Source: Pyrinomonadaceae bacterium
GTDB lineage: Bacteria > Acidobacteriota > Blastocatellia > Pyrinomonadales > Pyrinomonadaceae
Direction: 5' to 3'
NCBI GenBank assembly: GCA_030840675.1
Contig: JAVEEA010000072.1
Coordinates: 3,938-67,937, forward strand
Length of the DNA: 64,000 bases
Position numbers and translations under genes: made by a program. Within the stretch, counting starts at the first letter, position 1. The number at the start of each line of letters is the position of its first letter. The notes below the pieces were generated by a model. That model was not told the origin of the DNA. It saw nothing but the letters and a program-made list of their open reading frames with translations, and did no database searches. Shown one piece after another: positions 5,674 through 58,179 of this stretch.

Positions 5674-5674
5674 G

Positions 5675-15259: not shown

Positions 15260-15292
15260 GTCTAGAGCCTATCACCGGCAGCGGCCGATACG

Positions 15293-15325: not shown

Positions 15326-15387
15326 GCCATTCGGAGTGCGATGATCGCGCTCCAATAAAGATCTGAATTCCCCGTTCTCGCTGCCGG

Positions 15388-21914: not shown

Positions 21915-21926
21915 GAGGAAGAAAAC

Positions 21927-24470: not shown

Positions 24471-24513
24471 AGAGTCGGGGTCAAACCCTGGCTCATAACT
24501 AAAGAGGACAACT

Positions 24514-27121: not shown

Positions 27122-27160
27122 CAGAGGAACTGTAGCAGCAATGATTGAGAGGCGTAGCTG

Positions 27161-27340: not shown

Positions 27341-27345
27341 GAATT

Positions 27346-28005: not shown

Positions 28006-28020
28006 ACCCGGTGAACTCGA

Positions 28021-29855: not shown

Positions 29856-29870
29856 TGTGACAGTGAAACC

Positions 29871-30272: not shown

Positions 30273-30296
30273 GCGCGAAGAAAGCGTGAGGCAAAC

Positions 30297-30698
30297 ATGG
30301 ATTCTCAAATTGTCGGCAGCGGATGGCGCTTTCCGATTAGGCCTGATTCGACCGGTGGCCTCGGCTACTCGTCCGGGGACGAAAACGTCGAGCAGTCACT
30401 CAAGATCTTGTTGTTGACGAACCTGGGTCAGCGCGTGATGCGTACCGACTTCGGCAGTAAGGCGCCGGGCCTCGTGTTCGCGCCCGGAAATTTGCAGTAC
30501 CTCGGTCTCCTGGAAACAACCATTCGCGAAGCGGTACGCGACTGGGAACCGCGTATCGATCTGGAGGAAGTGCGTGCCGAACCCGAGCTCGACGACGAAA
30601 CTCAGATTACCGTTCACATCGGCTACCGCGTGCGACGGACCAACACGCGCAGCAATCTGGTATTTCCCTTCTATCTCGGAACAGTGGAGCGAAGTTGA
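30297..30698 (+). CDS. GPW/gp25-family baseplate wedge protein
   Basis: GSGWRFPIRPD ... VEQSLKILLLTNLGQRVMRTDFGS ... V matches the gp25 lysozyme-like pattern. Confidence 0.85.
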   Translation: MDSQIVGSGWRFPIRPDSTGGLGYSSGDENVEQSLKILLLTNLGQRVMRTDFGSKAPGLVFAPGNLQYLGLLETTIREAVRDWEPRIDLEEVRAEPELDDETQITVHIGYRVRRTNTRSNLVFPFYLGTVERS

Positions 30699-37100: not shown

Positions 37101-37231
37101 GCAGTCCGCGGGTTGCGCAACCTGACAACCTTCGCCTGACCCACGGTTGATTGTCGTTCGCTCAAGCATTGTTTTCGAGGGTGCAAGGGGAGCCAGCAGT
37201 CAGCAGCTTAATTTGAGGAGCCCAACTAATC

Positions 37232-38650: not shown

Positions 38651-38750
38651 CAACCAAAGGTTCGGAGTTGCAACTTGAATGTCGGCGCAGAGCCCGCCGG
38701 CGTTAGACGACCGGTGGTGGTGACGTTTCCGTTCACGCAAGGAGATCAGA

Positions 38751-40685: not shown

Positions 40686-41842
40686 GTACCGGCATTGAGC
40701 GACCACTCTTCTTCGAGAATCAGATCCTGGGCGCGGCGGACCTTACCGCTTCGGTGGAACATAGCCGCGGGCAGGAAGCGCGACACAATCGCTACCTGCA
40801 TCTGTGGGGCATCGCCTACGGCCTGGAACTGAGCGGCGAGGACGCTGAAGAAAACAATCAGCCGTTTAAGAAGATCACGCTCTCGGCCGGCATGGCGATC
40901 GACGGGACGGGGCGCGAGATCATTGTGCCGCAGTCAGAAGCCTTGAGCGAAAACACTTTTTCGCAGTTGCAACTTACGGCCGGACTCAACCTCGCTGAAG
41001 TTTGGTTTCCTGTTTTTCTAGTTGGTAAAGATCAACCGGCCCAACAACCACCGCTGGCAACAGCCAGGTGCGACAGCTCGGCGCCGTCGCGCAAGGTGGA
41101 AGGCTACGAGATCACGTTTCGTCGGCCGGGCGAAGCACGCACGCTGGATGAACAGGCTGCGGGCAATGTTGCTGACGGACCAGGGGCCGGCGACTGGAAG
41201 ATTCTGCTGGGCTTTGTTCAGTCGAATGCCAATGGCGACAAGTTTACAGATTTTAAGTATGAGGTTAGCGGCATCGGACGCAAGTATGCGGGCGTCCAGG
41301 CAGACGAGGTGGCGGCGCGCAGCGGTTCGTTGAAGTTGCGCACTCGGACCACGCCTGAGGCGAACAAGCCGGCGCTGCTGCTGGACGAAACGGGTGATGG
41401 GCTACTGCAATTCGGTTCGCTTGACGCGCTCGGAAGGCTACAGGCGGTCTTTAGTGTTAACGCCAAAGGTGACGTTAAGGCTGAAGGCAAAATCATCGGC
41501 GCGTTGACCACCAAAAATGTTCAGATTGAATCCGGCATCGCCACCGATGGAGTGGTGCTCCCTCTGCCGCCGGGAATCACGGAAAAACAAGTTGCGGACG
41601 GCGATGCGATTGTGCAAACGCATATCTCACTGCGAATGACTGGGGAAACATCGCCCCCGGGCGCGGCCCCCTCAACGGACCAGTGGGGCGCTTCTCCGCT
41701 GGAAGTTTGGGTCGACTCCGAGCGCCGCGTACATTGTAAGGCGCGCTGGTTTCGCATGATTGGCAGCAGCGGTCGTGTCGAAGACCACCCGGCTGCTTGC
41801 AATTATATGGTGCTCGCCTCGGTGAAGGAGACGCAGCCATGA
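40682..41842 (+). CDS. fibre-like paralogue 3 (386 aa)
   Basis: GTGA overlap. It carries the shared module RPLFFENQILGAADLTASVEH...HNRYLHLWGIAYGLEL. Confidence 0.6.
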   Translation: MSTGIERPLFFENQILGAADLTASVEHSRGQEARHNRYLHLWGIAYGLELSGEDAEENNQPFKKITLSAGMAIDGTGREIIVPQSEALSENTFSQLQLTAGLNLAEVWFPVFLVGKDQPAQQPPLATARCDSSAPSRKVEGYEITFRRPGEARTLDEQAAGNVADGPGAGDWKILLGFVQSNANGDKFTDFKYEVSGIGRKYAGVQADEVAARSGSLKLRTRTTPEANKPALLLDETGDGLLQFGSLDALGRLQAVFSVNAKGDVKAEGKIIGALTTKNVQIESGIATDGVVLPLPPGITEKQVADGDAIVQTHISLRMTGETSPPGAAPSTDQWGASPLEVWVDSERRVHCKARWFRMIGSSGRVEDHPAACNYMVLASVKETQP

Positions 41843-42468
41843 ATGAAAAAATGCAGGTGCTGTTTGCGAAACAAACTGGTCATGTGCTGGCGGCCTTTAC
41901 GCGCACCGCCGACTCTGAAAACAAACCCAAAGTCGTCGCTGCGACCGGTGGCGGTCTGGTGGTTCGCCAGCCCACTTTAGTCACAGCTTTGTCGGCTACT
42001 ATTCAGGAAATGATCGTACCTGCCGAAGCGCTGGATCTGTCAGTGGTTGATTTTGACTCGGCGGTTTTTGGTTCGCCGCGCGAGTATGTAGAAGGCGGAG
42101 GTAAAATTGCGAAGCTTGGTCCGGATACGCTCTTGTCCGTTTCCACTCCGCCACCAGCTTCATCACCAACCACTCTTGTCAGTTCCCCGGAAGTCAGCTT
42201 CAGCACCACTCGGCTCGCTATCCAAATTCCTACTAATACGGCTGATGAAAAGGGAGTGTGCGTAATTCTGGAGGAGAAAGCGCCGTTGCCGGGGGTGGCG
42301 CCGGAGCGCAGGGTGGCCCAGGGGAAGATAGCCACTGGGACACATTTTATTTCGCTTGATTGGAAGACCAGTCCTGACGGTTCCCCAGTCTCGGTTCCCA
42401 GCGGCAGTTATTTCGTTCTGGCCCTGCTGGCCGGCTGCCAGCCACTCTTTCGAACCATAACTCTTTAG
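41839..42468 (+). CDS. eCIS-associated hypothetical protein (209 aa)
   Basis: Start reset to ATG 41839 (ATGA overlap, GAAGGAG RBS). No motif recognised. Confidence 0.55.
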   Translation: MNEKMQVLFAKQTGHVLAAFTRTADSENKPKVVAATGGGLVVRQPTLVTALSATIQEMIVPAEALDLSVVDFDSAVFGSPREYVEGGGKIAKLGPDTLLSVSTPPPASSPTTLVSSPEVSFSTTRLAIQIPTNTADEKGVCVILEEKAPLPGVAPERRVAQGKIATGTHFISLDWKTSPDGSPVSVPSGSYFVLALLAGCQPLFRTITL

Positions 42469-42486
42469 GAACCGGCAGGCCAAGCC

Positions 42487-44754
42487 ATGGTCGACATCAC
42501 CATCCATCGCTGCACGCTACGCATTGTTCGACACGGCGGTTGGGGCTGGGGACCAGAGCCACGCAGACTACTGCAAACTGCAATCAAGGCGTTGCCTGAG
42601 TTGCTGGAAGCGGAGCTGGGTAAACTTTGGCCCGACGATCTTGAGCTGAATTTCGCGGCGCCTGTTTCCCTAAGAATTCCTATGCGGCTCGGAGAGCTTG
42701 TGGCCGCGACCCACCGGGAAGAAGGCTTCAACTCGACCACAACGTCACCCGAGGCGCAGGCCCTGGGCCAACGAATTGCCGTCGCCGCAAGACGCGCGTT
42801 TGGTAGCGAGCAAAGTGCTGCGGTGTCTCAGTCAGAACTGGGGAGACCTGCGAAAGACGAACGCGCGATCGCTTTGCCGCTCCAGCGTGGACCGGGCAGC
42901 GCGGTCTTTGAGGTGCTGCGGTCCTGGTGTGAGGCGGGCGTGCTTACGCAACGATTGTCTGGTTTCTCAGTGACGGCCCTCGCAGCTTGGTTGGCGCAAT
43001 TGATTCAGCCTGCGCCTGGCCCAATTGCTCAAACTCCGGATGGTCCAGTCGCTTGCGAATCTGTGGGTCGCGCCGCACGCGGCGGCGTTCGGGAAGCATT
43101 GTATCCGGTTACTTCGTTTGTGACTCAACCACGCAGCGGTCACGGCGACTCTGTTCCTGCCGAAGTAATTATTCGGGTTGTTGGCGACCACGTTCGCCGG
43201 CTGCAAGACGCCGCAGAGAACCGCGCAGCCACTCTGCGACGCCGCCTAATTATCCTGATCGAAGTCATGACTGAGCTTGGCCTGCGACAATGTGATCCCC
43301 CTTTACTCGAGACTTTGCAGCGGCTGCTGCCATTGCCCGGCGCCGCGAACGTTCCCGCCAGTGAAGCACTAACGTCGCCGAAGTTCACACAAGATGAGTA
43401 CAGCTTGCCCGGTGCCGCGAACGTTCCCCCCAGTGAAGCAGAGGAAACGCGGTCAGGAGGCAGCTCCGAACAACGCACGTCAACGTCGAGTCGAGTAGCG
43501 ACGACTTTGCGAGAAATTGAAAGGGATCGTTCGAACTTTTCGCCCGCGGTTTCGCAGCCAGCGGTGGGTGCCGACCACTCGGAGACAAGGTCAGCGCAGG
43601 CTTCACTCGTCGCAGCCGAGCGCGCTTCGGAACAGTCGCAACGGTCGTCGCAAGCGAATGTCCCTGCGCTCGCGTTGCAACCGGCAATCGCGGTTCCGTT
43701 GCTTTCTGGCGTCCGCAGACTTGCGGCAGACGGAAGCAAGCAACGTGTCGTCTCAGCCCTGCCCTTCATCCTGCTTGGACCATTGTCGCGGGTCGGTTAC
43801 TTGAAGGTGCTGGCGGCAACCCTGGAAGCGGCAGACGCCGTTGCCTCGTCGTCCCTGTTTGCCGCGGCCCTTGCTTATAAAGTATTGGCGCCGCCCGCGC
43901 GCGGCTGGCGGCGTGAACCGGATGCGATCACAGCCGCGAGCGCGTTCGCGGGGTTGGCCCAGCCGGTACCCGAACCCGAGTTGGCCCAGTTAGCACGTCA
44001 CCTGTACCAGCAACTCTCGCCTTTGGACGCGCTCATCTCCGGAGCTTTGATCAGCGGGCACAACCAGCAAAAACCAATCCTGTTGTTGCGGGCGGGGACC
44101 AAAACCGAGGACGGTTTTCTTTTGGTAGACGTCGAGGGAACGTTTGCAATTCAGTGGGCCGAGGAGCTTGCCGAGCTTCGCCAAGCTCTGGTCCAACTGG
44201 ATTCTTCGTTGGTACTGGTGCCACAGGCTACGGCTGATGCCAAAGTGTTGCGCTGGCTCGCTGAGGAGGGTTTCCAGTTCGTCACCGATGCAATTCCGAT
44301 CCGTGGAGAACAGTGGCGCAACCTGAGGTGCCAGCAGGAACGCTGGTGGACCAACGAGGCGATCAGATCAGACACGTCATTGATAAAGATGGCGCGCCTG
44401 ATGCGCACGGCAGCGGAGGAAGCTGCGTCGAGCTGGGCAGCGCTCATGGTTCAGCGTCCGAGCGTGCCGCTGGCTGACGACCACAAACTCGACCGCCACC
44501 TGACGCTCGCGGCTTCGCTCGCACTCGGAACTGTGGCCTGGGAACTGTGGCGCGCTCGTGAACAAACCTCGCCGCAACTGGCGCTTGAAAGGTTCAGCGA
44601 TCTCGGAGCTCTGGTTACCTGGAATCGTGACGCTGTACACGTGACTCTCCCGCTGGGAAAACGATTTCAGGACCTTCGCGATCACGGTCTCCTCGATGAC
44701 GTGAGTGAGGTGCCGTGGTTCAACGGACGCAGGTTGACGTTCTCAACTGATTAG
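42487..44754 (+). CDS. hypothetical protein in the Afp14 (tail-length/assembly) position
   Basis: 755 aa, lying immediately before the Afp15-like ATPase. The middle is Ala/Ser/Gln-rich and probably disordered, and contains an internal 36-bp direct repeat. Confidence 0.55.
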   Translation: MVDITIHRCTLRIVRHGGWGWGPEPRRLLQTAIKALPELLEAELGKLWPDDLELNFAAPVSLRIPMRLGELVAATHREEGFNSTTTSPEAQALGQRIAVAARRAFGSEQSAAVSQSELGRPAKDERAIALPLQRGPGSAVFEVLRSWCEAGVLTQRLSGFSVTALAAWLAQLIQPAPGPIAQTPDGPVACESVGRAARGGVREALYPVTSFVTQPRSGHGDSVPAEVIIRVVGDHVRRLQDAAENRAATLRRRLIILIEVMTELGLRQCDPPLLETLQRLLPLPGAANVPASEALTSPKFTQDEYSLPGAANVPPSEAEETRSGGSSEQRTSTSSRVATTLREIERDRSNFSPAVSQPAVGADHSETRSAQASLVAAERASEQSQRSSQANVPALALQPAIAVPLLSGVRRLAADGSKQRVVSALPFILLGPLSRVGYLKVLAATLEAADAVASSSLFAAALAYKVLAPPARGWRREPDAITAASAFAGLAQPVPEPELAQLARHLYQQLSPLDALISGALISGHNQQKPILLLRAGTKTEDGFLLVDVEGTFAIQWAEELAELRQALVQLDSSLVLVPQATADAKVLRWLAEEGFQFVTDAIPIRGEQWRNLRCQQERWWTNEAIRSDTSLIKMARLMRTAAEEAASSWAALMVQRPSVPLADDHKLDRHLTLAASLALGTVAWELWRAREQTSPQLALERFSDLGALVTWNRDAVHVTLPLGKRFQDLRDHGLLDDVSEVPWFNGRRLTFSTD

Positions 44755-44772: not shown

Positions 44773-46962
44773 TTGCTCAATACGATTGCGACAGAACATC
44801 TCCTGCTTCGCTTGCGACCGCTTAATCGCGCCTTGCAAGCGGCGGTCGCCGCTCAGGGACAAGTGGCTGCGCGTCTGTTTCATCCCGATGTCACGCCGTT
44901 GTGCGTGACTGAAGAGCAAGTCCGCCTGCTGTTGAGCGAGATCGATCAGTTGAATACGGATCCCGACGAGCCGCCGCCGGCTAGTCTTTCGCCGGAAGAA
45001 CTTTCCCTGGAAGCAGTCCTGCGCCAGCGAGCCCACGCGGCGCAAACGCAACTTCCGCTCGATCGCCTGGCCCGGGAACTGCAACTCTCAAGCTTCGAAC
45101 AAGAGGCCGTACTCTCATGTGCCGCCGTCGAGTTGGATCGTGCGTACGAACGCATCTATGCCTTCATCCTCGATGATCTCAACCGCCGTTATCCCTGCGT
45201 CGAGTTAATTTGCAATCTCACTACGGCCACCCTGGTTGAGCGTTGCGCCCGGCGTCCGGCGCTTGGTCCGTATGGAAAACTTCGGCGCCATGGAGTGTTG
45301 CGGGCCTATGGAGATCCGCCCACCGAGGGACGCCAGGAATTGCGACTGGCGACTGGCCTGTTCGCTTTTCTGACCGGCGCCGCCGGAGACGCGACTACAC
45401 TCTTTCGCGACCGGAGCAAGGTAACTTTACCCGCGCATCCGGACGGAAGGCTCCCCGCCGAAATCGATGCTGAGTTAGTAAGGCGTGCCGGACGTGCGAT
45501 CAGTGCTGGCGAAATTGCCGTGTTGGGTATTTGGGGTCCGCGCCATTCAGGTCAAAAGGAAGTTGTGCTCGCGGTCGCGGTCGCCGCGGGTTTGCCGTTG
45601 CGCTGTTGGCCCGCCGGCGAGATCACGACTCCGGGTTTTAGTTGGGAACAGAGCATTGCGGAATCCATTCATTGCGCGACGGCCTTAGGATCGCTGTTAT
45701 GGATTGATACTGACTTGCTTGACGGTCAAGCCAACGAAGGTTTGCGGGCCTTGAGTGCGCTGCTCGCAGACTACCTGGCCGTCTGCAGGATTCCCATCAT
45801 TCTCACCGGCACAAACCCCTGGCGTCCCACCGCTCTGCTTGAAGCACGACCTTATGCCCAACTGGAAACCAGCACGCCGGGCTATGCCATGCGTCAGGCT
45901 ATGTGGGAACGCGCGTTGCCCGAAGTAAGCCGGAATCACCGTGATGATTTGGCTGCTCGTTTTCGGATGAACAATCAGGAGTTACGCGCCGTGGCACTGA
46001 TGACCGGGACGCAAGCGTGTCTCGCCAACAACGGCAGCGCACTTACGATCAATGAGCAACTCGAACAAGCATGCGACGCCATTACACGCAAGCAGAGTCA
46101 CCGCTTTGCCAGCGTAATCAGACCGCGACGCGGCCGCGATGACTTGATTCTTCCAGCTCCGCTGCACCAGCAGATAATTGAGATTGCGCAGTTTCATCGC
46201 GCCTGGCCGCGCGTGGCTGAAGGCTGGGGCTTTGGCCGGATGATAACTGGAGAAGGCGGCATCAAGGTGCTGTTCACCGGCCCTTCGGGTACCGGCAAAA
46301 CGTTAGCCGCCGAAGTGATCGCCGGCGAACTGCGCATGGCCCTGCTCAAAATAGATTTGTCTCGCGTCGTTTCCAAGTGGGTGGGCGAGACAGAGCGCAA
46401 CCTGGAACAGGCGTTCAGTGAAGCCGAGGACAGCAACGCATTGTTATTTTTCGACGAAGCGGATTCGCTGTTTGGAAAGCGCGGCGAGGTGCGTCACGGC
46501 GTCGACCGTTATGCGAACCTCGAAGTCAGTTACTTGTTGCAGCGACTGGAAACATATTTCGGTCTGGTCATTCTCGCCAGCAACCTGCGCGAGAACATCG
46601 ACGCTGCCTTCACCCGCCGTTTCCAGATCGTATTGAACTTTCCTCGTCCCGAACCAGCCGAGCGCCAGCGTATTTGGCGGCTAGCGTTTCCAGCCGCGGC
46701 ACCGGTCGACGAAGAGGTGGATTTCGAGTTGCTGGCAAAGTTGGATATGACCGGTGCGAGCATAATGAATGCCGCCCAGACTGCGGCCTTGCTGGCAATT
46801 GAATCTACGCAGAACGGAAAAGCGGATGGCAGTCAAGCAGCAGTGACAATCATGCCGGCTCACGTGGTCCAGGCAATCGCGCGCCAGTATCAACGCGAAG
46901 CGCGACTGCTGACCGCCTCGGAGTTGGGAGCTTATGCCGAACTGCTGCCGGAGGGACGATGA
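44773..46962 (+). CDS. Afp15-like AAA+ ATPase (eCIS assembly/cargo-loading ATPase)
   Basis: TTG start. Walker A GPSGTGKTLAAEVIA, Walker B LLFFDEADSLFGKR and sensor ILASN. The long N-terminal non-ATPase region matches Afp15/Pvc15-type proteins. Confidence 0.9.
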   Translation: MLNTIATEHLLLRLRPLNRALQAAVAAQGQVAARLFHPDVTPLCVTEEQVRLLLSEIDQLNTDPDEPPPASLSPEELSLEAVLRQRAHAAQTQLPLDRLARELQLSSFEQEAVLSCAAVELDRAYERIYAFILDDLNRRYPCVELICNLTTATLVERCARRPALGPYGKLRRHGVLRAYGDPPTEGRQELRLATGLFAFLTGAAGDATTLFRDRSKVTLPAHPDGRLPAEIDAELVRRAGRAISAGEIAVLGIWGPRHSGQKEVVLAVAVAAGLPLRCWPAGEITTPGFSWEQSIAESIHCATALGSLLWIDTDLLDGQANEGLRALSALLADYLAVCRIPIILTGTNPWRPTALLEARPYAQLETSTPGYAMRQAMWERALPEVSRNHRDDLAARFRMNNQELRAVALMTGTQACLANNGSALTINEQLEQACDAITRKQSHRFASVIRPRRGRDDLILPAPLHQQIIEIAQFHRAWPRVAEGWGFGRMITGEGGIKVLFTGPSGTGKTLAAEVIAGELRMALLKIDLSRVVSKWVGETERNLEQAFSEAEDSNALLFFDEADSLFGKRGEVRHGVDRYANLEVSYLLQRLETYFGLVILASNLRENIDAAFTRRFQIVLNFPRPEPAERQRIWRLAFPAAAPVDEEVDFELLAKLDMTGASIMNAAQTAALLAIESTQNGKADGSQAAVTIMPAHVVQAIARQYQREARLLTASELGAYAELLPEGR

Positions 46963-47054: not shown

Positions 47055-49352
47055 ATGAACTCTAAACGGACTCAGCCCTTAGAGCGCGAGATTCAGGTCG
47101 CGTCAGCGACTGCTGTTTCGAACTCCTATTCGGATCCCTTGAATCGCCTTGAGGACTCGCAATCAGCCCTGGGGAATGCCGCAGTTGCCGAAGCTGCCAA
47201 AAACACCAACACGGCGGGGAGGTCCGGATTGCGATCTGCCATGCAGCCTGGTTTTGGCGCCTTGGAACTACAGTTAAAGGTTGGAAACTCCGGTGTTCAA
47301 AGGGCCCTTCGCGCCGCTTCGATTCAACCGAAGCTTGCCGTTGGCCAGCCAGACGACTTGTACGAACAAGAAGCTGATCATGTGGCACAAATGGTGATGC
47401 GCATGCCGTCTCCGTCCGCGCCGACTGAGGCCTCAGCGTCTGTGCTGGAACGAAAATGTGCTGCCAGTGAAACCGCTCATGAGCAATGTTCGAAATCTGC
47501 TGAGGGGCAGGGGAGAGTGCAACGGAAGCCACTGTTCTCAAGAATCACATCGTTCATTCAGCGTCACGCAAGTGCATCCGAAGGCAGTGGTGAATCGGAA
47601 CTTCGCCAACCGGTGGAAAGCCAAATAAAGAAAACGCGCGGCGGAGGGGAACCGTTGTCAGCTAATGCACGCTCCTTTTTTGAACCGCGGTTTGGCATGG
47701 ACTTCAGCGAGGTTCGCGTGCACACCGGTAACGATGCTAACGAAATGAACCGCGCCGTCGGCGCCCGGGCCTTCACCCACGGTTCGGACATTTACTTTGG
47801 CGCGGGAAACAGTCCAGCAGATTTAGAGCTCACCGCGCACGAGTTGACCCACGTGGTGCAACAGACCGGCGAAGGCGCGAGCCCGTCAGATGCCGAGCCC
47901 GCGGTGCAACGCGTGCCGATTGCAACCAACGGCGGCAGCTTCGACACCCCCAGCGGCTACTATGGCATCAACGCGCCGACCGGCGCGATTGGACAGCGCC
48001 TCGGCGCGAACATTTGGCTCGAATTCATGGCCAACGATTTAGTCGAGAGCACCAAGATAGGCTTGATACAGAGCGTAAAGGCGATGAAAAGTTCGGCGCC
48101 TGCCGGATCGCGCGACACCGTCGCGACAGGGGTGGGCGATACCGAAGAGGGCCAGCTCATCATGGGCCCCGGTCAGGCAGATCCGGGCCGCGAAATCGAT
48201 CAGGCAGTGCACCCTGGAGGCAGGGCGGTGCCTAGCACCAGCCCCGTCTATGGCGTCGGATACAGCGCCGGCGGCGGGGAGACGACCTTGAGCCAGGGCG
48301 CGCCGTCAGTAGCGAATAGCCAGTGGGGCTCGCACACGAAGGATCCCATAACCGGGGCTTTTCTGGCGGCTGTGCCGGCTCGCATCGCAGATGGGCCGGG
48401 CCGCACCATTGAGTTCGTTGGTCAGAACTTCGAACACACCTTCGAGGTCGCCGCCCTGGCAATCGAAGGTCCCATCCCAGTAAATACTTATCTGGGGTCA
48501 GTATCGTGGGGCTATACCTCGGACGCCGCCGGCCACGTGACCGTCGCTCCCCTGGCGTTGGTAGGCGCCGGCACGCCCAGTGCCGGCTTCATGGGTGCCG
48601 CAGAGCGCTGGAACGCGGCCACTTTCCAGAATGCCCCCGGCGCCGCGCTCCCTTCAGTCGATATCCCGATCACCAACCTGACTTCCACTCTGGTGTCCAC
48701 CCGAACCACGAGCGATCTGGTTATCCAGATCGCCAGGATCACCGCCGAGTTGATTCCGATGGCTCCCGGTACGGATAGGGCCAACAAGGAATTTGAGAAG
48801 AGGGCGATGGAAGCCGAGCTGGCCAGGCGCGCCGATCAGCCAACTCGCTCTCTGGCGGATCAGGAAGCGTCCGCCGCTCTACTCTCGACGGCCGATCTCA
48901 TCAGACGCTCCGACGCGCTGCCTGCCGAGATTCGTGCCATGCCGGCAAGTCCGCCGCGCACCGACAAGGAACTGGAGCAGGAGGGCGTGAAGCGAGAGAT
49001 CGCGAAGCGAAGAATGCTCATCACCGTCCACGTCCATGAGACCGAGGACATTATTGGCTCCGACAGCGTCTACGTTACAGCGGTGTCCGGGTTTCTAAGC
49101 AATAGGACTTCCGTAGTCAACCTGAACAACGGCGAGGAACATGCCTTCGTCGTGCCTCTTTCCGCCCTATTTGTCGCGCCGCTTACGATGGGATCCACCT
49201 CGCTAGTGATCCGGGCATACGACGAGGACTGGGAGGGAGACGACAAGATGTTCGAGAAAGATTGGATATGGTCCAATCTCCCGGCGGAAGAGACGCAGTC
49301 CCGGGACGGCGGCAGGTACACCGTGCGGATCGACTTCGTGCAGCTGAGATGA
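47055..49352 (+). CDS. DUF4157-domain protein (HExxH), putative eCIS cargo/effector 1
   Basis: AGGAGG RBS. Motifs are IQPKLAVGQPDDLYEQEADHVAQMVM, GGGEPLSANARSFFEPRFGMDFSEVRVHTGNDA and LTAHELTHVVQQ. Confidence 0.8.
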   Translation: MNSKRTQPLEREIQVASATAVSNSYSDPLNRLEDSQSALGNAAVAEAAKNTNTAGRSGLRSAMQPGFGALELQLKVGNSGVQRALRAASIQPKLAVGQPDDLYEQEADHVAQMVMRMPSPSAPTEASASVLERKCAASETAHEQCSKSAEGQGRVQRKPLFSRITSFIQRHASASEGSGESELRQPVESQIKKTRGGGEPLSANARSFFEPRFGMDFSEVRVHTGNDANEMNRAVGARAFTHGSDIYFGAGNSPADLELTAHELTHVVQQTGEGASPSDAEPAVQRVPIATNGGSFDTPSGYYGINAPTGAIGQRLGANIWLEFMANDLVESTKIGLIQSVKAMKSSAPAGSRDTVATGVGDTEEGQLIMGPGQADPGREIDQAVHPGGRAVPSTSPVYGVGYSAGGGETTLSQGAPSVANSQWGSHTKDPITGAFLAAVPARIADGPGRTIEFVGQNFEHTFEVAALAIEGPIPVNTYLGSVSWGYTSDAAGHVTVAPLALVGAGTPSAGFMGAAERWNAATFQNAPGAALPSVDIPITNLTSTLVSTRTTSDLVIQIARITAELIPMAPGTDRANKEFEKRAMEAELARRADQPTRSLADQEASAALLSTADLIRRSDALPAEIRAMPASPPRTDKELEQEGVKREIAKRRMLITVHVHETEDIIGSDSVYVTAVSGFLSNRTSVVNLNNGEEHAFVVPLSALFVAPLTMGSTSLVIRAYDEDWEGDDKMFEKDWIWSNLPAEETQSRDGGRYTVRIDFVQLR

Positions 49353-49572: not shown

Positions 49573-50010
49573 ATGGGCAGTCAATCTCTCGACCCAACTG
49601 CTTCGTTCAACACCGGCGGCCTTGAACTTCGCATTGCTGCGCGCGGCTCCAACGCCGTGCTCACCTTGCACAACGACGGTCCGGATCAGCTGACAGTTTT
49701 CAGTTACGTCCAGGGCAGTCTAGAACAGTACGACTGGTTCACGATCTTTATTGCGGGTCCTGCCGAGACGTGCACCCTGCACCTCTACGACGACCGCAAC
49801 GCTTCGGCGCGCGTGACGGCTAACCTCGCTCCCGGCCAGGAAGTCGAACACGTGATCGATGTTGTCGCCTGGGCGCAGCGAAAGCCGAACGGCGCACGGC
49901 CGCTAGCGCCTGGGACCTATCGCATGTGGGCCAGCTACGAAGTAACGGAACCAGGCGACGTGTGGACTGGCAAGTTAGTGTCGCCGACAGTTGCCATCAC
50001 CATCCCGTAA
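49573..50010 (+). CDS. small beta-rich hypothetical protein (145 aa)
   Basis: ATG with a TGGAG RBS and no TM segment or signal. It lies between the two DUF4157 genes. Confidence 0.5.
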   Translation: MGSQSLDPTASFNTGGLELRIAARGSNAVLTLHNDGPDQLTVFSYVQGSLEQYDWFTIFIAGPAETCTLHLYDDRNASARVTANLAPGQEVEHVIDVVAWAQRKPNGARPLAPGTYRMWASYEVTEPGDVWTGKLVSPTVAITIP

Positions 50011-50074
50011 TCGCCAAGGTTCGTGGCTGTGCGAAGTAGCAGCTGCAACTAAACAAACGTTTGCAATCGAACGC

Positions 50075-52117
50075 ATGAAGTCCATTTTTGGCAAGCGACA
50101 AAACACCCAGGCCGACGCGGAGGCATCTGCCGAGCGTCTTCTCGATCTGCGCCAGCCCAAAGCATCAACAAGCGATGGGTTGGACCAAGCCTACTCTGCC
50201 AACGATCAGGGCAGCACACTTAATCTGCAAGCGAGTTTTGGTAACGCTGCCGTGACGCGCACGATAATTCAGCGCAAGGCTGAAGACGCTGAGATGTCCA
50301 GCGTTGCCAGCGCGAGTTCGGAAGCGGCTAACTCTGCGACGGAAGCTCCCGCGGACAATGCCTCCGCTATGGTCGTTGCGGCTGCAACTGTGACGCAGGC
50401 ATTGATCGTTGAAGACAACGTCGAAACAATTGCTTCAGGGCAAATGAAGAAGAGTGAGTTTCTCGCGCAGTTGCGCGCGGCAGTAAGTAGCACCGCCGCG
50501 GACGCACTCGCCGGCAGTCCCATGTCAGCGGCGGCGAGTCTCTACATTGACAACGTCTTTGCTCAATATTCCGCACAAGGTAGTGGCCAACTCGAAGGAA
50601 GCATTCGACGCTACGCACCTGAAGCTGCCGCAGTCACCAGCGCCGGCGCGCTTATACCTATCATCACCGGTCGCGTTCGTCGGTCGCTCACGACATTCGT
50701 GGCGACGGGCCAGCTCACCGGCGTGCCGGAAGGTTTGCCGCTGGGTTTGCCTGGGCCAGGCCCCTTGGGTGCGATGGCAGGCGCAGTCTCCAGTGTAGCG
50801 TCGGGAGTCGCCGACGTTGCTTCAAGTGTGGCCTCCGGAGTGGGGAGCGCGGCTTCCGCCGTGGGCAGTCTTCTTTTCAAAGAGCACAGCGGCGGCGCCC
50901 GAGAAGTTAACGATCCGCGTGCGATTGAAACCCAGTTGGGCTCCGGGCAATCTCTTGACGCTGAGGTGCGCTCACGAATGGAGTCGGCGTTTGGGGAAAG
51001 CTTCAGCGGCGTCCAGGTCCACGCGGATTCGAACGGTGCCGGCATCTCCCAGAATCTCAACGCGCGCGCGCTCACGGTGGGACAACACATCGCCTTTGGC
51101 ACGGCCGAATACCAACCCGGCACATTGATTGGCGATGCGTTGATCGCGCATGAGTTGGCCCATGTGCTGCAGCAACGCGGAGGAGCAGGGGCCGCTAGCC
51201 CGGCAGAGAAGGGAGCTGGCGAGTATGGTTCGCTCGAAGCGGACGCGGATGAGGCTGCGGTCGGCGCGATAGTGTCCGCTTGGGGCGGCGGGAAAAAGGG
51301 ATTGGCGAAGATTGCCAGGAATGCCTTGCCTAGTCTGAAGTCCGGATTGCGTTTGCAGCGCTGCAGTAAGACTTCAAGCGGACCTGTCGGCGCCACGCGA
51401 CTAACCAAGGCGCGAGCGAATTTCCAAAACAAGAATGATCACCTCGCCCCGGACGAACTCGCGAGAATTGACGCGGGTCTGAGCGCGGTGACCGCTGACA
51501 ACTTAAACCTTTGGATTGCCTTTTATGACTACTACTCACGCAATAAGATTTTAAAAATGGATGCGGACACGGCGGCGAAAGCCACAGCCTCCGGGTTATA
51601 CGCCACCACGAAACCGAACGATGACACGTACCTGCGACCAGACTTACTGGCTGCCGGCTTTCCCGCGGCGAAGCTGGGCACGACGTTGATCCACGAATTC
51701 ACCCACACGCGACACGATACCAACTACATGGGAAGCCGTGATTACCAGGAGGGTGAATCTTATGGCATCGAGTATTTCCTGGCGGAACGCGCTGGGGAAC
51801 GCACGCGAATGAGTGAGATTCTCAGTGTTATGTCCAATCCCAAAACCATTGCGATGCCCGCAAGTGTTCCCGCGCTGTTAATGGGATTCAGATCACAATA
51901 CGCGACCATGCAGGGGCTATACGAGATTATCGACAAAGGCCACTCTTCTCATGCCGGCTCACCTTTCGTGACGCCGGTATTGTTGACTGCCGCGGACGCC
52001 AGGGCGTTAGCCGAAGAACTGGTTGACACCAGGGAGGACAATCGTGGAGCACAACTCAAGAGTCTTTTGACCTGGGTTCAGGCCAATCTCAAGAGCTTCA
52101 CAATTCCACCGGTCTAG
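50075..52117 (+). CDS. DUF4157-domain protein with second HExxH-like motif, putative cargo/effector 2
   Basis: Start reset to ATG 50075. The DUF4157 region is GSGQSLDAEVRSRMESAFGESFSGVQVHADSNG ... LIAHELAHVLQQ. A downstream LIHEFTHTRHD motif is encoded at 51692-51706. Confidence 0.8.
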   Translation: MKSIFGKRQNTQADAEASAERLLDLRQPKASTSDGLDQAYSANDQGSTLNLQASFGNAAVTRTIIQRKAEDAEMSSVASASSEAANSATEAPADNASAMVVAAATVTQALIVEDNVETIASGQMKKSEFLAQLRAAVSSTAADALAGSPMSAAASLYIDNVFAQYSAQGSGQLEGSIRRYAPEAAAVTSAGALIPIITGRVRRSLTTFVATGQLTGVPEGLPLGLPGPGPLGAMAGAVSSVASGVADVASSVASGVGSAASAVGSLLFKEHSGGAREVNDPRAIETQLGSGQSLDAEVRSRMESAFGESFSGVQVHADSNGAGISQNLNARALTVGQHIAFGTAEYQPGTLIGDALIAHELAHVLQQRGGAGAASPAEKGAGEYGSLEADADEAAVGAIVSAWGGGKKGLAKIARNALPSLKSGLRLQRCSKTSSGPVGATRLTKARANFQNKNDHLAPDELARIDAGLSAVTADNLNLWIAFYDYYSRNKILKMDADTAAKATASGLYATTKPNDDTYLRPDLLAAGFPAAKLGTTLIHEFTHTRHDTNYMGSRDYQEGESYGIEYFLAERAGERTRMSEILSVMSNPKTIAMPASVPALLMGFRSQYATMQGLYEIIDKGHSSHAGSPFVTPVLLTAADARALAEELVDTREDNRGAQLKSLLTWVQANLKSFTIPPV

Positions 52118-53530: not shown

Positions 53531-56500
53531 ATGAGCCTATCCTTCGACAAACAGACGTTGGCTGAGCAGGAGGATTTGGCGGCTTCCTTGCGGCCGGCCG
53601 CGGCGGCGCTGACGACTGCAACACCGGCGCACAGTACCGATCCCAGCGCACGGCAAACAAGTTCCAGTGCGACCGCGAATGGTCCTGCCGCTTCGTCGTT
53701 TCAAAGTACGCCTAACCTGCAGTCCGCTTTTGGGAACGCTGCTATTGCCCAATCACTAAGTCAGCAAAGCTCGGCAAATGAACCGGGCTCTCATGTTGGT
53801 GGTCCGGCCTCTTTCGAAAATGCCCGCCAGCAGTTTGGTTACGGTAACGGCGCCGTCGCGCGCGCAAATCTGTCGGTGGGAACCGGTTTGCAGTCGCACC
53901 CGGCAACTTCCGGAAATCCAGTCGCAAGCGCCGCAAGTTCGGCCTCACCACAACCATCACTGACTGGACTACCAGCGATCAATAACGCGGGCGCGCTTGC
54001 ACCCGACGTGCGTTCCGTGCCTCAAGTCCCGCAGACTGAGGTTGGCCCCCCGACCCCCGGGACAGGAAACCAATTGCCTTCAGCAACAGGCGTTGGCCCA
54101 GTCGCGTCCCCAAATTCTGAAGGCCCAGTCTCGCCAGAGACACCGCCCCGTCCAGCCGGTGCCCAGACCAGCGCGCCCGCAACCGTTGGGCCGCCAGCGG
54201 AACAGACAACATCAGATCGTTCCGCAAAGGAACCGTCAGAGCGCGCTGCCAGCAGTGTCGCTGAGACGGGTGCTTCCCCCAGCGGTCCGGAAAATTCTGT
54301 TAAAGGTGACGGCCCAGGTTTGAATAGCGAACAAGCCGTGGAGACGGCGGGTGCGTCAGGCGACAATGCAGGAACGAGCCTTACTGCTCTTGACGTACCC
54401 GAGACGCCTGAGGTCGACACGCAACCCGCCATTGATACCGAGCTGGTCGCGAATGCCGCACCCAACCTGCAAACAGCGATCGCGCAAGTAAGGTCAACGA
54501 TTGCGCAGAAGAAAACGCAAATTCGGACGGCCGCCGCGGCAGCGAAAGATGCGCTGCACACTCAAGCCGCGACTAAACGACAAGAGGTAAGCAACGCCGC
54601 CAGTGAACTGGTGCAGCGAGCGAGAACTGACGTTGCGCAAAGTCGCTCGCAAGTTTCGTCTATCATCGGCGAGCAACGTGCAGTGGTGTCGCGGACTCTA
54701 GCGGTACAAAAGGAAACTACGCATCAGGGCGTAACGCGAGAGTCGCAGCGCCTTGGTACTGAAGCCGCGAAACTGAGCGTGTCGGTAATGAGTGTGGCCC
54801 GCGATCGGACCAGCGCCGCTGCCGCGCTTGGCGTCGCGCAATCCACTCGCGCGCGCACCGAAGTCGCGAGGCAATCCGCCGAAGCTCGTCGGCGAGGCGC
54901 TAACAAAGCGCATTCCATACGCGACGAAGATCCGGAGCGGGCACAGACACAACAATTTGCCGTGCTTCAAGTTGCTGAAGAACAGGCGCAGCAGATTACC
55001 ACTACCGGTCCTGAGATTGAGCAGTTCGCGCTTGACCGGGCCGGCGAGATTGCTACCAGTTTTTCAGCCCAGGCGATACAGGTTGCCACGGGAATCAATA
55101 GTGCAGTGCCCGAAGTGCAGGCGTCGGTGCTCAGCTTGAGTAACCATGCCGATGGGCACATGGATCGGCTGGCGCAGACTACGCTCGGTTCTTTGGCTGG
55201 TTTGGAACAGCGTCTGATGCGTCAACTGGACGAGCTGGAAGCAGCGTCACTGCTCCAGGCTCGCGGACTCGCCCGAGAAATTCTGCCGCAGATCGACGCC
55301 GCCGAGCAGGCTGGTGTGGCGCAGCTTGCTTCGTTAACTCAAAGGGCCCTGGCGGCGCTCGACGATTCAGCCGGCGACACGATTGCAGAATTAACTGCCG
55401 CTGATACTCCGGGCGAAGCTCAGGTGGGCACACGCCAGGAAGAAATTGCGCAACAGACTCTCACTCATTTTCAGACGCTCACTCATTATCTCGACACTCA
55501 AATATTGGAGATAGCCGCGCATGCAAACGACGGGTTCACGCAAATCCAGGCGCAGTTGAACGGCGCGCTCACCGCTACCCAGGAAGCGGCACGCTCAGGA
55601 GTTAACTCGCTGGTGCAGCAGCTGAATCAAGGCTTCGAACTGGCGCGCAACGAAGTGGTAGGGAAGGCGACTGGAATAGTCGATCAGTCGTTGGCGAAGT
55701 TCGGCGAACCGGTAAACAAAGCGATCGCGGAGTTTCAAAGCACCTATGCAAAAGGCGAACGGGATGTAATCGCGGGAGTGACTGACAGTCTGCTCTCGAA
55801 TGACCGGGCACTCGATGAAATGGGTACCCACTGTAAGTTGACCGAAGCCGCCGACCGCGCCAGGGAGGAATACGATCGCCCCACCTGGCAAAAAGTACTC
55901 ATCGCTGTAGGCAAAGCGGTGCTCTATCTCGCCGCGGCGCTTCTTTTTACTTTTGTGGTGGCGGTCGTGATTTTCGTGGGCGCGATTATTCTGGGAATTA
56001 CCGGCGTCACGTTCGCCATTGCGTTTGCGATTGCCGTGGTTTTGGTGGCGATTGGTTTTGTCATTTATGAATTTGTTCAGCGGCTCATTGCTTACAAAGC
56101 GGAACACGGTGCCATCGATAGCTTTTGGGAGGCACTCGGTGTTTCGGCAGCATTACTTTTGATAAGCGTCGCCAGTCTTACCGGCATACCACAAATTATC
56201 GAAGGCCTCAGGGGTAAACGTTTCTTCAGCGACATTCCACTCACTTCACAGGAACGCTACGATCTCGTAATCGGCGGCGTTCTTCAACTGGTCTTGATCG
56301 TCGTTGCCAGATCTTTCAGGGGACGTGGGGGACGTACCGGGCGCGCAGGCCCCGTAGAAGAACCGCTGCCGGTGCGTCCTCCAATTGAAGAAGAACCGCC
56401 GGTGGTCCTCGTTGACCCGTGGGCCGTCCTCGCCAGGCGATTTGGTCTCAGCGCCGAGGTGATCGAAATCCTTCGTACCAGCGGCATCGACGTTACCGTG

Positions 56501-57370
56501 TTCGAGCGCATCCTCGCCCGTGGCGTCAGTGGCGAAACGGTTGGTCTGATTACTAGTTTGCACGGCCGCGCCGGCGTCGGTGTGCTCGATCGGATGTCTG
56601 CTGACGGCTTTACCGACGGCGATATTCTGCGGCTTGTCGACGACGCTGACCGGCTGGGCCAGTTGGACGCTCTCAGCGATCTGACTGCGCGCGGGATAGC
56701 CCAGAGGCTGCTGCGCAATGGCTTCGACTCGACCGAGCTGATTCTCTTGCTACAGGAGTTGCATCAGGCGGGCATCCAGACAATCGACGGACTGATGCGA
56801 GCCGGTGTACAAAAGGCCCCGGCCATCGAAGCCGCGCGACTGGCAAGACAAATTGGTGCGGTCGAAGAAGTGACCCAACTGGCAACGAGTGGTAATCTTG
56901 AGAATCCGCTGGGCCTGCGAAACTTCCTGAGAGAAGTGGCTGCTGAACTAGAAGTTGGTAATCAAGGCAAACTCACCCAGTTGCGTGAAGCTGCGCAGAG
57001 ATCTTCGGGTGGCCCAGTGGCAATCGAGAGATCAGCACGGGGCCAGGCTGATATTATCGACTTCGGTCGGCAAGAAGCGCTGCAGATGAAAGTGGTGAGC
57101 AGCCCCGAGCCTGCTCAGGTTGGCGTAAGGGTTAACGAGGCTGCGAGCCAGCTTCGTGGCGAGAGAGGTGAGGTTCCGCCGGCCGGGTTTAAGACGATCG
57201 CCGATATCCGCATCACGAACCCCGACAATCCGATGTTTCCGCTTAACCGTGCGCAGTTACTACTGCAGTTAAGAAATAATGGCGTGACGCAGGCATCGCT
57301 GGCAGGCGTCGGCGAAGTGCATGTCACCAATGGGAGCGGCACACACGTCTACACTCCTAACGAGTTTTAA
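53531..57370 (+). CDS. 1279-aa coiled-coil/TM protein sharing the cargo N-terminal leader motif; putative cargo/effector 3
   Basis: The LQSAFGNAAIAQSL leader resembles those of the DUF4157 proteins. Order: Pro/Ser/Ala-rich region, about 450 aa of Ala/Gln/Glu-rich helical region, two to three TM helices (aa ~790-880), then a ~370-aa C-terminal globular region. Confidence 0.75.
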   Translation: MSLSFDKQTLAEQEDLAASLRPAAAALTTATPAHSTDPSARQTSSSATANGPAASSFQSTPNLQSAFGNAAIAQSLSQQSSANEPGSHVGGPASFENARQQFGYGNGAVARANLSVGTGLQSHPATSGNPVASAASSASPQPSLTGLPAINNAGALAPDVRSVPQVPQTEVGPPTPGTGNQLPSATGVGPVASPNSEGPVSPETPPRPAGAQTSAPATVGPPAEQTTSDRSAKEPSERAASSVAETGASPSGPENSVKGDGPGLNSEQAVETAGASGDNAGTSLTALDVPETPEVDTQPAIDTELVANAAPNLQTAIAQVRSTIAQKKTQIRTAAAAAKDALHTQAATKRQEVSNAASELVQRARTDVAQSRSQVSSIIGEQRAVVSRTLAVQKETTHQGVTRESQRLGTEAAKLSVSVMSVARDRTSAAAALGVAQSTRARTEVARQSAEARRRGANKAHSIRDEDPERAQTQQFAVLQVAEEQAQQITTTGPEIEQFALDRAGEIATSFSAQAIQVATGINSAVPEVQASVLSLSNHADGHMDRLAQTTLGSLAGLEQRLMRQLDELEAASLLQARGLAREILPQIDAAEQAGVAQLASLTQRALAALDDSAGDTIAELTAADTPGEAQVGTRQEEIAQQTLTHFQTLTHYLDTQILEIAAHANDGFTQIQAQLNGALTATQEAARSGVNSLVQQLNQGFELARNEVVGKATGIVDQSLAKFGEPVNKAIAEFQSTYAKGERDVIAGVTDSLLSNDRALDEMGTHCKLTEAADRAREEYDRPTWQKVLIAVGKAVLYLAAALLFTFVVAVVIFVGAIILGITGVTFAIAFAIAVVLVAIGFVIYEFVQRLIAYKAEHGAIDSFWEALGVSAALLLISVASLTGIPQIIEGLRGKRFFSDIPLTSQERYDLVIGGVLQLVLIVVARSFRGRGGRTGRAGPVEEPLPVRPPIEEEPPVVLVDPWAVLARRFGLSAEVIEILRTSGIDVTVFERILARGVSGETVGLITSLHGRAGVGVLDRMSADGFTDGDILRLVDDADRLGQLDALSDLTARGIAQRLLRNGFDSTELILLLQELHQAGIQTIDGLMRAGVQKAPAIEAARLARQIGAVEEVTQLATSGNLENPLGLRNFLREVAAELEVGNQGKLTQLREAAQRSSGGPVAIERSARGQADIIDFGRQEALQMKVVSSPEPAQVGVRVNEAASQLRGERGEVPPAGFKTIADIRITNPDNPMFPLNRAQLLLQLRNNGVTQASLAGVGEVHVTNGSGTHVYTPNEF

Positions 57371-58179
57371 TGGAAGACAGGATGAGAAATCTTTGGGTTA
57401 CGCGCGATGATCCAATCGCTGGTTGGGTTGCGGACCTGACTCCGTTACAACCTGAGCCGCAGGTTTTGCTGGACTGGTTGCAAAAGGTGTTGGCGGAAGG
57501 CGAGCGCTGTGAAGTATTCAAGGTTCGCGCCGCCCCTCTGGCTGATTATGTTTGGGCCAAAGATGGTCCACTAGCCTCTTATCTCAGACAGAGTTTTGCT
57601 GACACCGGAGTGGTGGACCTGTTCCATTTTTCTACTTCCCAGCTGAAGGTAATGGGAGACTCGCAGTTTCAGGCCTTAGCGCGCATGGCTTACTTTGACG
57701 CTGAGGGTCGACTGGCTGAAGCGGATGTCGCTGATCTGGGGTTGCTGCTGCGCAGCGTTCGTCCAGCCGATTTCGAAGTTAACTGGGGCCTATTCCATCG
57801 CTGCTTCCCGCTGCTGATCACGGGTCCAAAGGTAGTTTTAGGAAACCTGCAACCAGCGATCGCAGCGGATAAGCCGGAGGCCATCCGAGTCCGGTTTCGG
57901 ATCTTCTCTGACATTTGGTTTCCCTGGGTGCTTGGTTTTCTGGAGGACTCGTTTGACGTCAACCGCATGTATGACAATCGCCTTCTTTCCGAACGACACA
58001 CGCCGCGTTTGAACCGCTTTCTTTCGTTCGTCAGTGACCTCACCAAAGCGCTCGGGGGAACCTGGCAACTCGATAAGGAGGAATCGAACACAGTCTCGGC
58101 CTTCATGCTGGCGGACGAAGGCATACGTTTCGACGTGGAACCTCCTGCCGTATGGCCCATTGACCAAGACTCCCGCTGA
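57370..58179 (+). CDS. hypothetical protein, candidate immunity/accessory partner of the 1279-aa protein
   Basis: The ATG shares one nucleotide with the upstream TAA (TAATG). 269 aa, cytoplasmic-looking, no motif recognised. Confidence 0.6.
   Translation: MEDRMRNLWVTRDDPIAGWVADLTPLQPEPQVLLDWLQKVLAEGERCEVFKVRAAPLADYVWAKDGPLASYLRQSFADTGVVDLFHFSTSQLKVMGDSQFQALARMAYFDAEGRLAEADVADLGLLLRSVRPADFEVNWGLFHRCFPLLITGPKVVLGNLQPAIAADKPEAIRVRFRIFSDIWFPWVLGFLEDSFDVNRMYDNRLLSERHTPRLNRFLSFVSDLTKALGGTWQLDKEESNTVSAFMLADEGIRFDVEPPAVWPIDQDSR

Follow-up and report, generated by a model that had tools for sequence, protein, structure and literature searches.

A 64,000-nucleotide stretch of contig JAVEEA010000072.1 (positions 3,938 to 67,937 of the forward strand; assembly GCA_030840675.1) from a Pyrinomonadaceae bacterium of the Acidobacteriota, referred to here as the window, was analyzed for the function of a 1279-amino acid (aa) open reading frame (ORF) and of the short ORF (the partner) that directly follows it. 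Our reading, to which we assign a probability of about 0.75, is that the 1279-aa protein is a five-part cargo toxin of the contractile injection system (CIS) encoded in the window and that the partner neutralizes its C-terminal tip. A sequence-only reading of this DNA had described a membrane-inserting or translocator-type effector with a possible nuclease tip and a coupled immunity gene. The 1279-aa ORF, its layout and the 269-aa ORF were found as that reading described them, as was the quoted sequence GQADIIDFGRQEALQMKVV. Its assignment as an effector was strengthened by the location of the gene in the payload region of a complete CIS, by an N-terminal motif shared with two DUF4157 effectors and by a scaffold family in which DUF4157 and known toxin or pre-toxin domains occur.

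The + strand of the window from about 20.6 kb onward was found to hold a complete CIS locus. The structural set includes a Pvc16-like cap, two sheath proteins, two gp19-type tube proteins, a CIS_tube-LysM protein, a hub (phrog_52), a Phage_base_V spike, PAAR, gp25, two Baseplate_J proteins, Tail_P2_I and three CIS13-like fibre paralogues. All CIS core genes, the cap, the WHD-AAA ATPase and two eCIS_core (DUF4157) genes lie on the + strand upstream of the 1279-aa ORF, which is the longest of the cluster, and the distal part of the locus is ordered as a 755-aa ORF, the ATPase, the 765-aa and 708-aa eCIS_core proteins, an LGT-like membrane protein, the 1279-aa protein and its partner. Toxins associated with extracellular CIS (eCIS) have been described as encoded no more than about ten genes from CIS core genes (PMC11297309). 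The 1279-aa protein is encoded within about ten genes of the core genes, on the same strand and distal to the AAA+ ATPase; a DUF4157 protein is also encoded within two genes, namely the 708-aa eCIS_core protein on the upstream side.

A Q-x3-GNAA[VI] motif near the N-terminus was common to the 1279-aa protein and to the 765-aa and 708-aa DUF4157 proteins. In the six frames of the window, GNAA[VI] occurred exactly three times compared to 0.22 expected, each time within the Ser/Thr/Ala-rich N-terminus of one of these three adjacent cargo-like ORFs. Related motifs were found at the head of proteins from other loci. In locus L003 the scaffold protein has LQRRFGNRMLQ and its DUF4157 neighbour LQQSIGNRAARQLL; further examples are MQAAYGNAAV in a Paraburkholderia counterpart (L004) and LQQAAGNRAV in an Actinosynnema family member; a leader-type motif was detected by regular expression in 32 of 97 long members of the scaffold family. 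In AlgoCIS, a disordered N-terminal region is needed for cargo loading, for which DUF4157 is dispensable and an AAA+ ATPase is required (PROCIS preprint, 10.64898/2026.05.27.728243). The Ser/Ala/Thr/Pro-rich N-terminus and GNAA[VI] motif shared by the three proteins of the window fit the expectation that cargos have a disordered loading sequence in common, and by this analogy the leader motif may serve as a loading signal. A point that counts against our reading is that the motif was absent, by regular expression, from the four DUF4157 carriers of the terminal domain that were checked (L011, L012, L013 and L015); thus, the leader is not a universal CIS signal.

Table 1. Positions of the toxin candidate, its segments, its partner and the associated CIS genes in the window.
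Feature	Position	Strand	Basis
1279-aa CIS-associated polymorphic toxin (candidate), ATG start	53531..57370	+	ORF list
N-terminal Ser/Ala/Thr-rich leader, aa 1-85; proposed loading signal	53531..53785	+	composition, motif, PROCIS analogy
Motif LQSAFGNAAI, aa 63-72	53717..53746	+	sequence
Pro/Gly/Ser/Ala-rich spacer, aa 86-315, 13.5% Pro, presumably disordered	53786..54475	+	composition
Ala/Gln/Thr/Glu/Arg-rich, Pro-poor (1.5%) putative helical region, aa 316-786	54476..55888	+	composition
Hydrophobic region, aa 787-931	55889..56323	+	hydropathy
Pro/Glu-rich linker, aa 932-962, end of conserved scaffold	56324..56416	+	composition
Acidic helical-repeat pre-toxin region, aa 963-1104, begins VDPWA	56417..56842	+	AlphaFold2, pLDDT 95
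Terminal alpha/beta domain, putative toxin, aa 1105-1279	56843..57367	+	AlphaFold2 model, alignment
Partner gene (longest ORF, 269 aa), probably for the cognate immunity protein	57370..58179	+	ORF list, comparative genomics
CIS structural genes	20623..44754	+	family scans of window ORFs
WHD + AAA+ ATPase, Afp15/Alg15-type, proposed cargo loader	44773..46962	+	family scan; loader role from PROCIS preprint
DUF4157 (eCIS_core) effector, 765 aa, leader SQSALGNAAV	47055..49352	+	family and motif scan
DUF4157 (eCIS_core) effector, 708 aa, leader LQASFGNAAV	49991..52117	+	family and motif scan

The 1279-aa protein has a counterpart of 99% identity, P0001, listed as hypothetical in a Pyrinomonadaceae metagenome-assembled genome. 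Neither eCIS_core (none even at E<=10 on aa 1-320) nor its HExxHxxQ motif was detected in the protein, and comparison of the whole sequence and its parts to Pfam, NCBIfam, PHROGs and PADLOC gave a single match, a sub-threshold Apolipoprotein match on aa 316-786 that was set aside as compositional. The composition of this region suggests that it is helical; it is internally repetitive, and its second half is part of a conserved scaffold module. The hydrophobic region that follows consists of a 69-aa uncharged block (aa 787-855, nt 55889-56095; mean Kyte-Doolittle value up to 3.08) and two more hydrophobic helices (aa 865-893 and aa 910-931), with a conserved TGIPQIIEGLxG motif between these elements; its transmembrane (TM) topology is predicted from hydropathy.

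By whole-protein search only one distant relative was found, P0002. Its alignment covers aa 583-958 of the 1279-aa protein (24% identity, E 3e-21), beyond which its tail is unrelated. The full ORF of P0002 (about 1057 aa) is encoded in another CIS locus (L003), consists of a leader, Pro/Ala spacer, helical region, hydrophobic block and Pro linker, and is followed by an unrelated gene for a 109-aa protein. A profile of the scaffold module (aa 582-958), searched without a word index, detected at least 317 representative clusters at E<=1e-3, of which 181 remained at E<=1e-10 and 45 at E<=1e-30. Lengths in the family ranged from about 900 to 1500 aa, most proteins being 1000-1500 aa with the module in mid-protein. 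A Pfam scan of 40 full-length members detected eCIS_core in 16, PT-HINT in 3, PT-TG in 2, and Ntox1, Ntox17 and PIN in 1 each, and the last 220 residues of 137 members fell into 61 tail clusters. The shared module with its dozens of tail types argues for a delivery scaffold with polymorphic tips. VDPWA was considered as a family-wide cleavage or boundary motif and rejected, as just 7 of 149 members have it and it is a feature of the tail type of the 1279-aa protein. In L003, a 1146-aa protein (nt 12784-16224, - strand), headed by the leader LQQSIGNRAARQLL and with a DUF4157 HExxH and a C-terminal Peptidase_M15-like region, is encoded convergently with the scaffold protein; we read it as a second cargo with a tip of the cell-wall-hydrolase type.

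The C-terminal part of the protein was found to travel with the partner gene. A search with aa 960-1279 gave five relatives of 37-73% identity. A genome scan with terminal-domain motifs yielded no confirmed locus, and the partner protein served as the probe for domain loci instead; linkage was surveyed by four context look-ups and in 13 genome loci scanned with local hidden Markov models. In 12 of 12 domain-bearing loci, the window included, the terminal domain was at the extreme C-terminus of an ORF that ends just before the partner gene. Besides the window, these were L001, L002 and L016; a Paraburkholderia carrier of 1262 aa adjoining a WHD-AAA ATPase (L004); an Archangium Rhs carrier downstream of VgrG (L005), whose copy of the domain (38% identity, E 1.5e-29) comes after a DPLGL motif; a Cystobacter PAAR carrier (L008); a stand-alone cassette (L010); DUF4157 carriers (L011, L012 and L015); and a carrier with DUF4157 and scaffold (L013). 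The domain thus recurs behind Rhs, PAAR, DUF4157 (with or without scaffold) and leader-plus-scaffold modules as well as in orphan copies; the proteins that it ends include four with DUF4157 and one from Actinosynnema. Pairwise identities of domain and partner over 12 pairs were correlated (r 0.85; Mantel test, 0 of 5000 permutations). Linkage alone would also give such co-divergence, and binding of the partner to the domain is a prediction from these sequences.

The partner is acidic (isoelectric point (pI) 4.8), has no hydrophobic or TM segment, and had no family match in Pfam, NCBIfam, PHROGs or a PDB-sequence profile search. Its own family spans at least 150 clusters, all unnamed, from Acidobacteriota, Myxococcota, Paraburkholderia, cyanobacteria and Chloroflexota. 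The sequence-only reading had placed the partner start on the A of the preceding stop codon, and such an ATG does exist (junction TTT TAA TGG, with the last A of the stop). Across the 11 homologous loci, every partner homologue begins with M[RK]N[LV]W, at 0-27 nt after the toxin stop or, in one case, in an ATGA overlap. The counterpart in the window is the second ATG at 57382, which is preceded by GGAAGACAGG and yields a protein of 265 aa; a start at 57370 lengthens this by four residues (MEDR) that are not conserved. Thus, the 1-nt overlap is probably an artefact of longest-ORF calling; the two genes, separated by no more than 11 nt, are still closely coupled. That the partner goes with the tip rather than with the scaffold favours immunity over a role as chaperone. 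By these sequence comparisons we assign the terminal domain and partner to the polymorphic toxin/immunity cassettes, and the assignment of the partner as the putative cognate immunity protein, as the sequence-only reading had it, is strongly supported by comparative genomics: adjacency in the 12 loci, at least four delivery architectures, co-divergence and orphan partners.

Several of the surveyed loci had features of their own. In L002 (nt 463-2167) and L010 (nt 6023-7807), a helical-repeat region, toxin domain and partner are present without a delivery module, with in-frame stops upstream of the stand-alone toxin copy of L002; from their gene content these copies are classed as orphan toxin/immunity cassettes. 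In L001 (nt 3-3854), DUF4157, Ala/Gln-rich helical and TM-plus-toxin (P0007) segments lie in different frames of one contig, which looks like a single gene similar to Tme (see below) split by two frameshifts, either through assembly error or as a pseudogene. In L006 (nt 1-8813, Haliangium sp.), a protein of >2905 aa without the toxin domain is followed by three small unrelated genes, the last of which encodes a partner homologue; this arrangement resembles an immunity-gene array.

The nature of the tip was examined by structure prediction. AlphaFold2 modeling of the C-terminal region from a shallow alignment gave a predicted local distance difference test (pLDDT) score of 95.2, with some ten helices over aa 963-1157 and an alpha/beta domain after them. 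The last 175 residues alone (aa 1105-1279) were modeled at pLDDT 90.4 in the order H-E-E-E-H-E-H-E-E (H, helix; E, strand). This model has the alpha-beta-beta-beta-alpha-beta order of the PD-(D/E)xK core, formed by H42-54, E59-64, E67-73, E78-85, H91-104 and E117-124 in domain numbering. An alignment of 11 diverged copies (35-73% identity) revealed invariant polar residues at E1139, E1153, R1157, D1174, D1177, Q1185, K1187, Q1207, E1214 and N1267, of which E1153 is placed by the model on the helix before the strands, D1174 and D1177 on strand 2 and Q1185-x-K1187 on strand 3. The alignment contained neither a conserved His or Cys nor an R-S-E-type motif, as used by other common toxin chemistries. 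A fold search of the C-terminal region, a check suggested with the sequence-only reading, was carried out with Foldseek. Among the top 50 PDB matches of the terminal domain, 19 were nucleases of restriction-endonuclease fold from six families (Can2, Vsr, MUS81, arenavirus L, Cas4 SSO0001 and PA-N), all at E>=0.57, and most named BFVD matches were likewise of this kind, with ten named restriction-endonuclease-fold nucleases that included a restriction endonuclease (E 0.029) and Mrr (TM-score 0.44, E 0.22).

A body of evidence weighs against a nuclease. The second acid of the canonical (D/E)xK is an invariant Gln, and the nearby E1182 is E or Q. Foldseek gave no significant PDB match (best E 0.3, TM-score <=0.40), the best BFVD match was a non-significant 'minor capsid protein' (E 4.4e-3), and Arf GTPases, the ACC central domain and VldE were mixed into the weak matches; Arf-like GTPase, ACC-central and glycosyltransferase folds scored on par with the nucleases. 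Searches of the terminal domain (11 copies) as well as the partner in Pfam, NCBIfam, PHROGs, PADLOC and a PDB-sequence profile search were all negative, and the domain is mildly acidic (pI 5.8). These results would suit a toxin/immunity pair in which the tip is another enzyme or binder that acts in the cytoplasm, of Rossmann-like or unrelated alpha/beta fold, and we give this alternative a substantial, if minor, share of the probability. The order of secondary structure elements and the placement of the invariant E, D, D and Q-x-K residues on the PD-(D/E)xK template speak instead for a nuclease, as do the recurrence of the six nuclease families and the lack of residues typical of other toxin chemistries. 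On balance we lean toward a PD-(D/E)xK-fold nuclease for the modeled domain; the nuclease proposal of the sequence-only reading is therefore consistent with strand order and with invariant D1174/D1177 and Q1185-x-K1187, and did not find a significant match in Foldseek, Pfam, PADLOC or PDB-sequence searches. When the whole C-terminal model was used as the Foldseek query, designed helical repeats and TAL effectors were returned at E of about 1, which was uninformative. The idea that aa 963-1104 are HhH- or TAL-like DNA-binding units was dropped, as this region is acidic (pI 4.95), has no significant fold match and shrinks to one or two units in carriers of the Rhs and PAAR type; its repeat copy number differs among carriers.

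Other roles were weighed for the 1279-aa protein and its partner. That the protein is primarily a structural tape measure of the CIS, to which the C-terminal toxin is an add-on, is improbable. Its size within the cluster, long helical region and hydrophobic helices are shared with phage tape measures and with Tme, and no other ORF of the locus matches a tape-measure family. Yet it is encoded at the distal payload end, past the ATPase and two effectors, it has a cargo leader and no tape-measure match in PHROGs or Pfam at HMMER sensitivity, and the variation of its family in length and tail is at odds with this role. Moreover, a 755-aa ORF just before the ATPase (42487-44754, +), although itself without a family match, sits at what we take, from the Afp and PVC gene order, to be the Afp14/Pvc14 (tape measure) position, and by this position we assume it to be the length ruler. 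An intracellular CIS may also be tethered to the membrane of its producer, as by CisA, a 468-aa single-pass membrane protein with a periplasmic solute-binding-like domain that is needed by Streptomyces CIS. The 1279-aa protein would suit such an anchor by its disordered N-terminus, its hydrophobic helices and its folded C-terminal domain, but we regard this role as very unlikely: the protein has multiple hydrophobic segments in place of a single pass, its C-terminus is a helical repeat and alpha/beta domain of the polymorphic type found in Rhs and PAAR effectors and accompanied by an immunity-like partner, its N-terminal motif is common to the neighbouring DUF4157 effectors, and the fibre-like CIS13 paralogues suggest an extracellular target.

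For the partner, a role as chaperone or adaptor that stabilizes or loads a TM-containing toxin was considered in place of immunity. Effectors of type VI secretion systems (T6SS) that have TM helices need chaperones (Eag, DUF4123), and the two genes of the window are tightly coupled, as such a role would have it. Partner homologues, however, also follow Rhs, PAAR and TM-less DUF4157 carriers, whereas P0002, with the same scaffold, is followed by its unrelated 109-aa gene; they are encoded downstream of the toxin, and also occur as orphans, in small-gene arrays behind other toxins and in stand-alone domain-plus-partner cassettes. We consider a chaperone quite unlikely and retain the partner as the putative immunity protein.

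For the cargo toxin that we favour, the following mechanism is proposed. The leader would mark the 1279-aa protein and the two DUF4157 effectors as cargo of the same particle and, by analogy to AlgoCIS, the AAA+ ATPase may recognize it and thread the cargo into the tube lumen, where the long Pro-poor helical region would be extended as in tape-measure-like effectors. After firing, the hydrophobic block and two helices may insert into the cytoplasmic membrane of the target cell and help the acidic helical-repeat region and tip reach the cytoplasm; membrane insertion or translocation, which the sequence-only reading had also put forward, is suggested by hydropathy and by published proposals for related effectors. 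The Pro-rich linker and acidic helical-repeat pre-toxin region would join the scaffold to the tip. The tip, probably a 175-aa metal-dependent nuclease with an E...D-x2-D...Q-x-K signature, would attack nucleic acid. The acidic partner, presumably cytoplasmic, would bind and neutralize the tip and so shield the producer and its kin, as the genomic comparisons suggest. A tip that is shared with T6SS Rhs and PAAR effectors and that has a cytoplasmic partner points to a bacterial cytoplasmic target.

The protein was compared to two described CIS effectors, Tme and Sle1, by published descriptions. Tme of Streptomyces davawensis is a tape-measure-related effector with a nuclease tip, proposed to be ejected and inserted into the membrane (Nagakubo et al. 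2024, PMC11126660). Like Tme, the 1279-aa protein is the largest ORF of its CIS cluster and has disordered stretches, a putative coiled coil, multiple predicted TM helices (three hydrophobic segments), a Pro-poor region whose helicity is suggested by composition, and a C-terminal toxin domain. By contrast to Tme, it has no DUF4157, is encoded after the ATPase and not directly upstream of the baseplate genes, has a tip that is not EndA/DRGH-HNN-like and is followed by an immunity-like gene. DUF4157, which defines Tme-like genes, is present in the 16 scaffold members noted above and in the same-tip relatives L013 and P0182, and probably in L001. Sle1/Sle2 and the M. eburnea effector-immunity pair RS14790/RS14785 were described more recently, one relative of Sle1 having a nucleic-acid-targeting tip that is neutralized by a downstream gene (J Bacteriol 2026, PMC13277306). 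Sle1 is similarly a CIS effector without DUF4157 that is encoded near DUF4157 proteins, with a coiled coil of about 440 aa, a TM hairpin and an exchangeable C-terminal domain. The N-terminal coiled coil of Sle1 binds a small DUF4157 protein encoded beside it, whereas the 1279-aa protein has a disordered leader and spacer at this end, large effectors as its DUF4157 neighbours and an LGT-like gene in between. In addition, Sle1-type proteins are described in Actinobacteria and the present protein is from Acidobacteriota.

Similarity to other systems was also apparent. The AlgoCIS cargos Cgo1 and Cgo2 likewise share a disordered N-terminal loading region, with DUF4157 being optional, the C-terminal effector domain variable and an AAA+ ATPase encoded in the operon; the preprint gives no cross-system conservation of the loading region, whereas Q-x3-GN-x-A recurs here in several unrelated loci. 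The T6SS effectors of Archangium (Rhs) and Cystobacter (PAAR) use the same tip and partner family, but the delivery module of the 1279-aa protein is of the CIS type (leader and helical/TM scaffold) and not a PAAR or Rhs cage. For the PD-(D/E)xK DNase toxins PoNe, with their PoNi partners (Jana et al. 2019, PMC6688995), and Tox-REase domains, the fold was similarly proposed from motif and secondary-structure position, and these are also spread over several secretion systems. Identity with PoNe/PoNi was ranked low: the PoNe motif (Kx3GE...GIDx2Y...ExK) is absent from the terminal-domain alignment, the second catalytic position is Gln, and the partner has no Pfam match, DUF1911 and DUF1910 included.

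CIS effectors with a tape-measure-like helical/TM body and exchangeable tip are already published in kind, as are polymorphic toxin/immunity cassettes. What appears to be undescribed is a variant from Acidobacteriota that bears the leader but lacks DUF4157, how broad and polymorphic the scaffold family is, the recurrence of the Q-x3-GN-x-A motif, and the terminal domain and immunity family, for which Pfam, NCBIfam and PADLOC hold no model. CIS particles are being engineered as programmable protein-delivery tools, and few of their native cargos are understood. The window would provide one CIS with three cargos that bear a common short N-terminal motif, and places the 1279-aa protein in a large unannotated family with a conserved helical/TM scaffold and dozens of interchangeable, putatively toxic tips; such a scaffold may be a natural template for tip swapping. 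The Tme/Sle1 idea would be widened from Actinobacteria to Acidobacteriota, Myxococcota, Proteobacteria and others, and a new toxin-domain/immunity pair would be seen to be exchanged between CIS and T6SS (Rhs, PAAR) effectors. A bolder version of this view, which we consider doubtful as a whole, is that the helical region, an uncharged hydrophobic hairpin (roughly 60-70 aa) and the two TM helices form a self-contained cross-phylum translocation device, with Q-x3-GN-x-A as a cross-system loading tag, a hitherto unrecognized Q-x-K variant of the restriction-endonuclease fold as tip and a new immunity family (at least 150 clusters) common to CIS and T6SS. If true, a particle that merely punctures the envelope could move any soluble toxin over the cytoplasmic membrane of its target.

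Several neighbouring genes of the window were also noted. Between the second DUF4157 effector and the 1279-aa ORF lies a gene for a 389-aa membrane protein (52205-53374, +) with an LGT domain (prolipoprotein diacylglyceryl transferase, 52.7 bits) and an extra soluble C-terminal part of about 140 aa; it was not found beside the homologues in L003 or L004. A 145-aa ORF without family match (49573-50010, +) is directly 3' of the gene for the 765-aa DUF4157 effector, of which it could be an immunity or accessory gene, and slightly overlaps the called TTG start of the 708-aa effector. Translation of the latter probably begins about 84 nt past this TTG, at the ATG of MKSIFGKRQ. Toward its C-terminus the 708-aa protein has a second HExxH (LIHEFTHTRHD), possibly a metallopeptidase toxin tip. 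Three consecutive paralogues (37232-38650, 38751-40685 and 40682-41842, all +) share an N-terminal R-x-x-[YF]F-x-x-Q-[LI]L motif, two of them with weak matches to NCBIfam CIS13, and are probably alternative tail fibres or receptor binders. A promoter and terminator scan around the toxin/partner pair gave nothing usable. Directly after the pair, a convergent 360-aa ORF (58234-59316, -) resembles, by eye, a sigma-54-type transcriptional activator.

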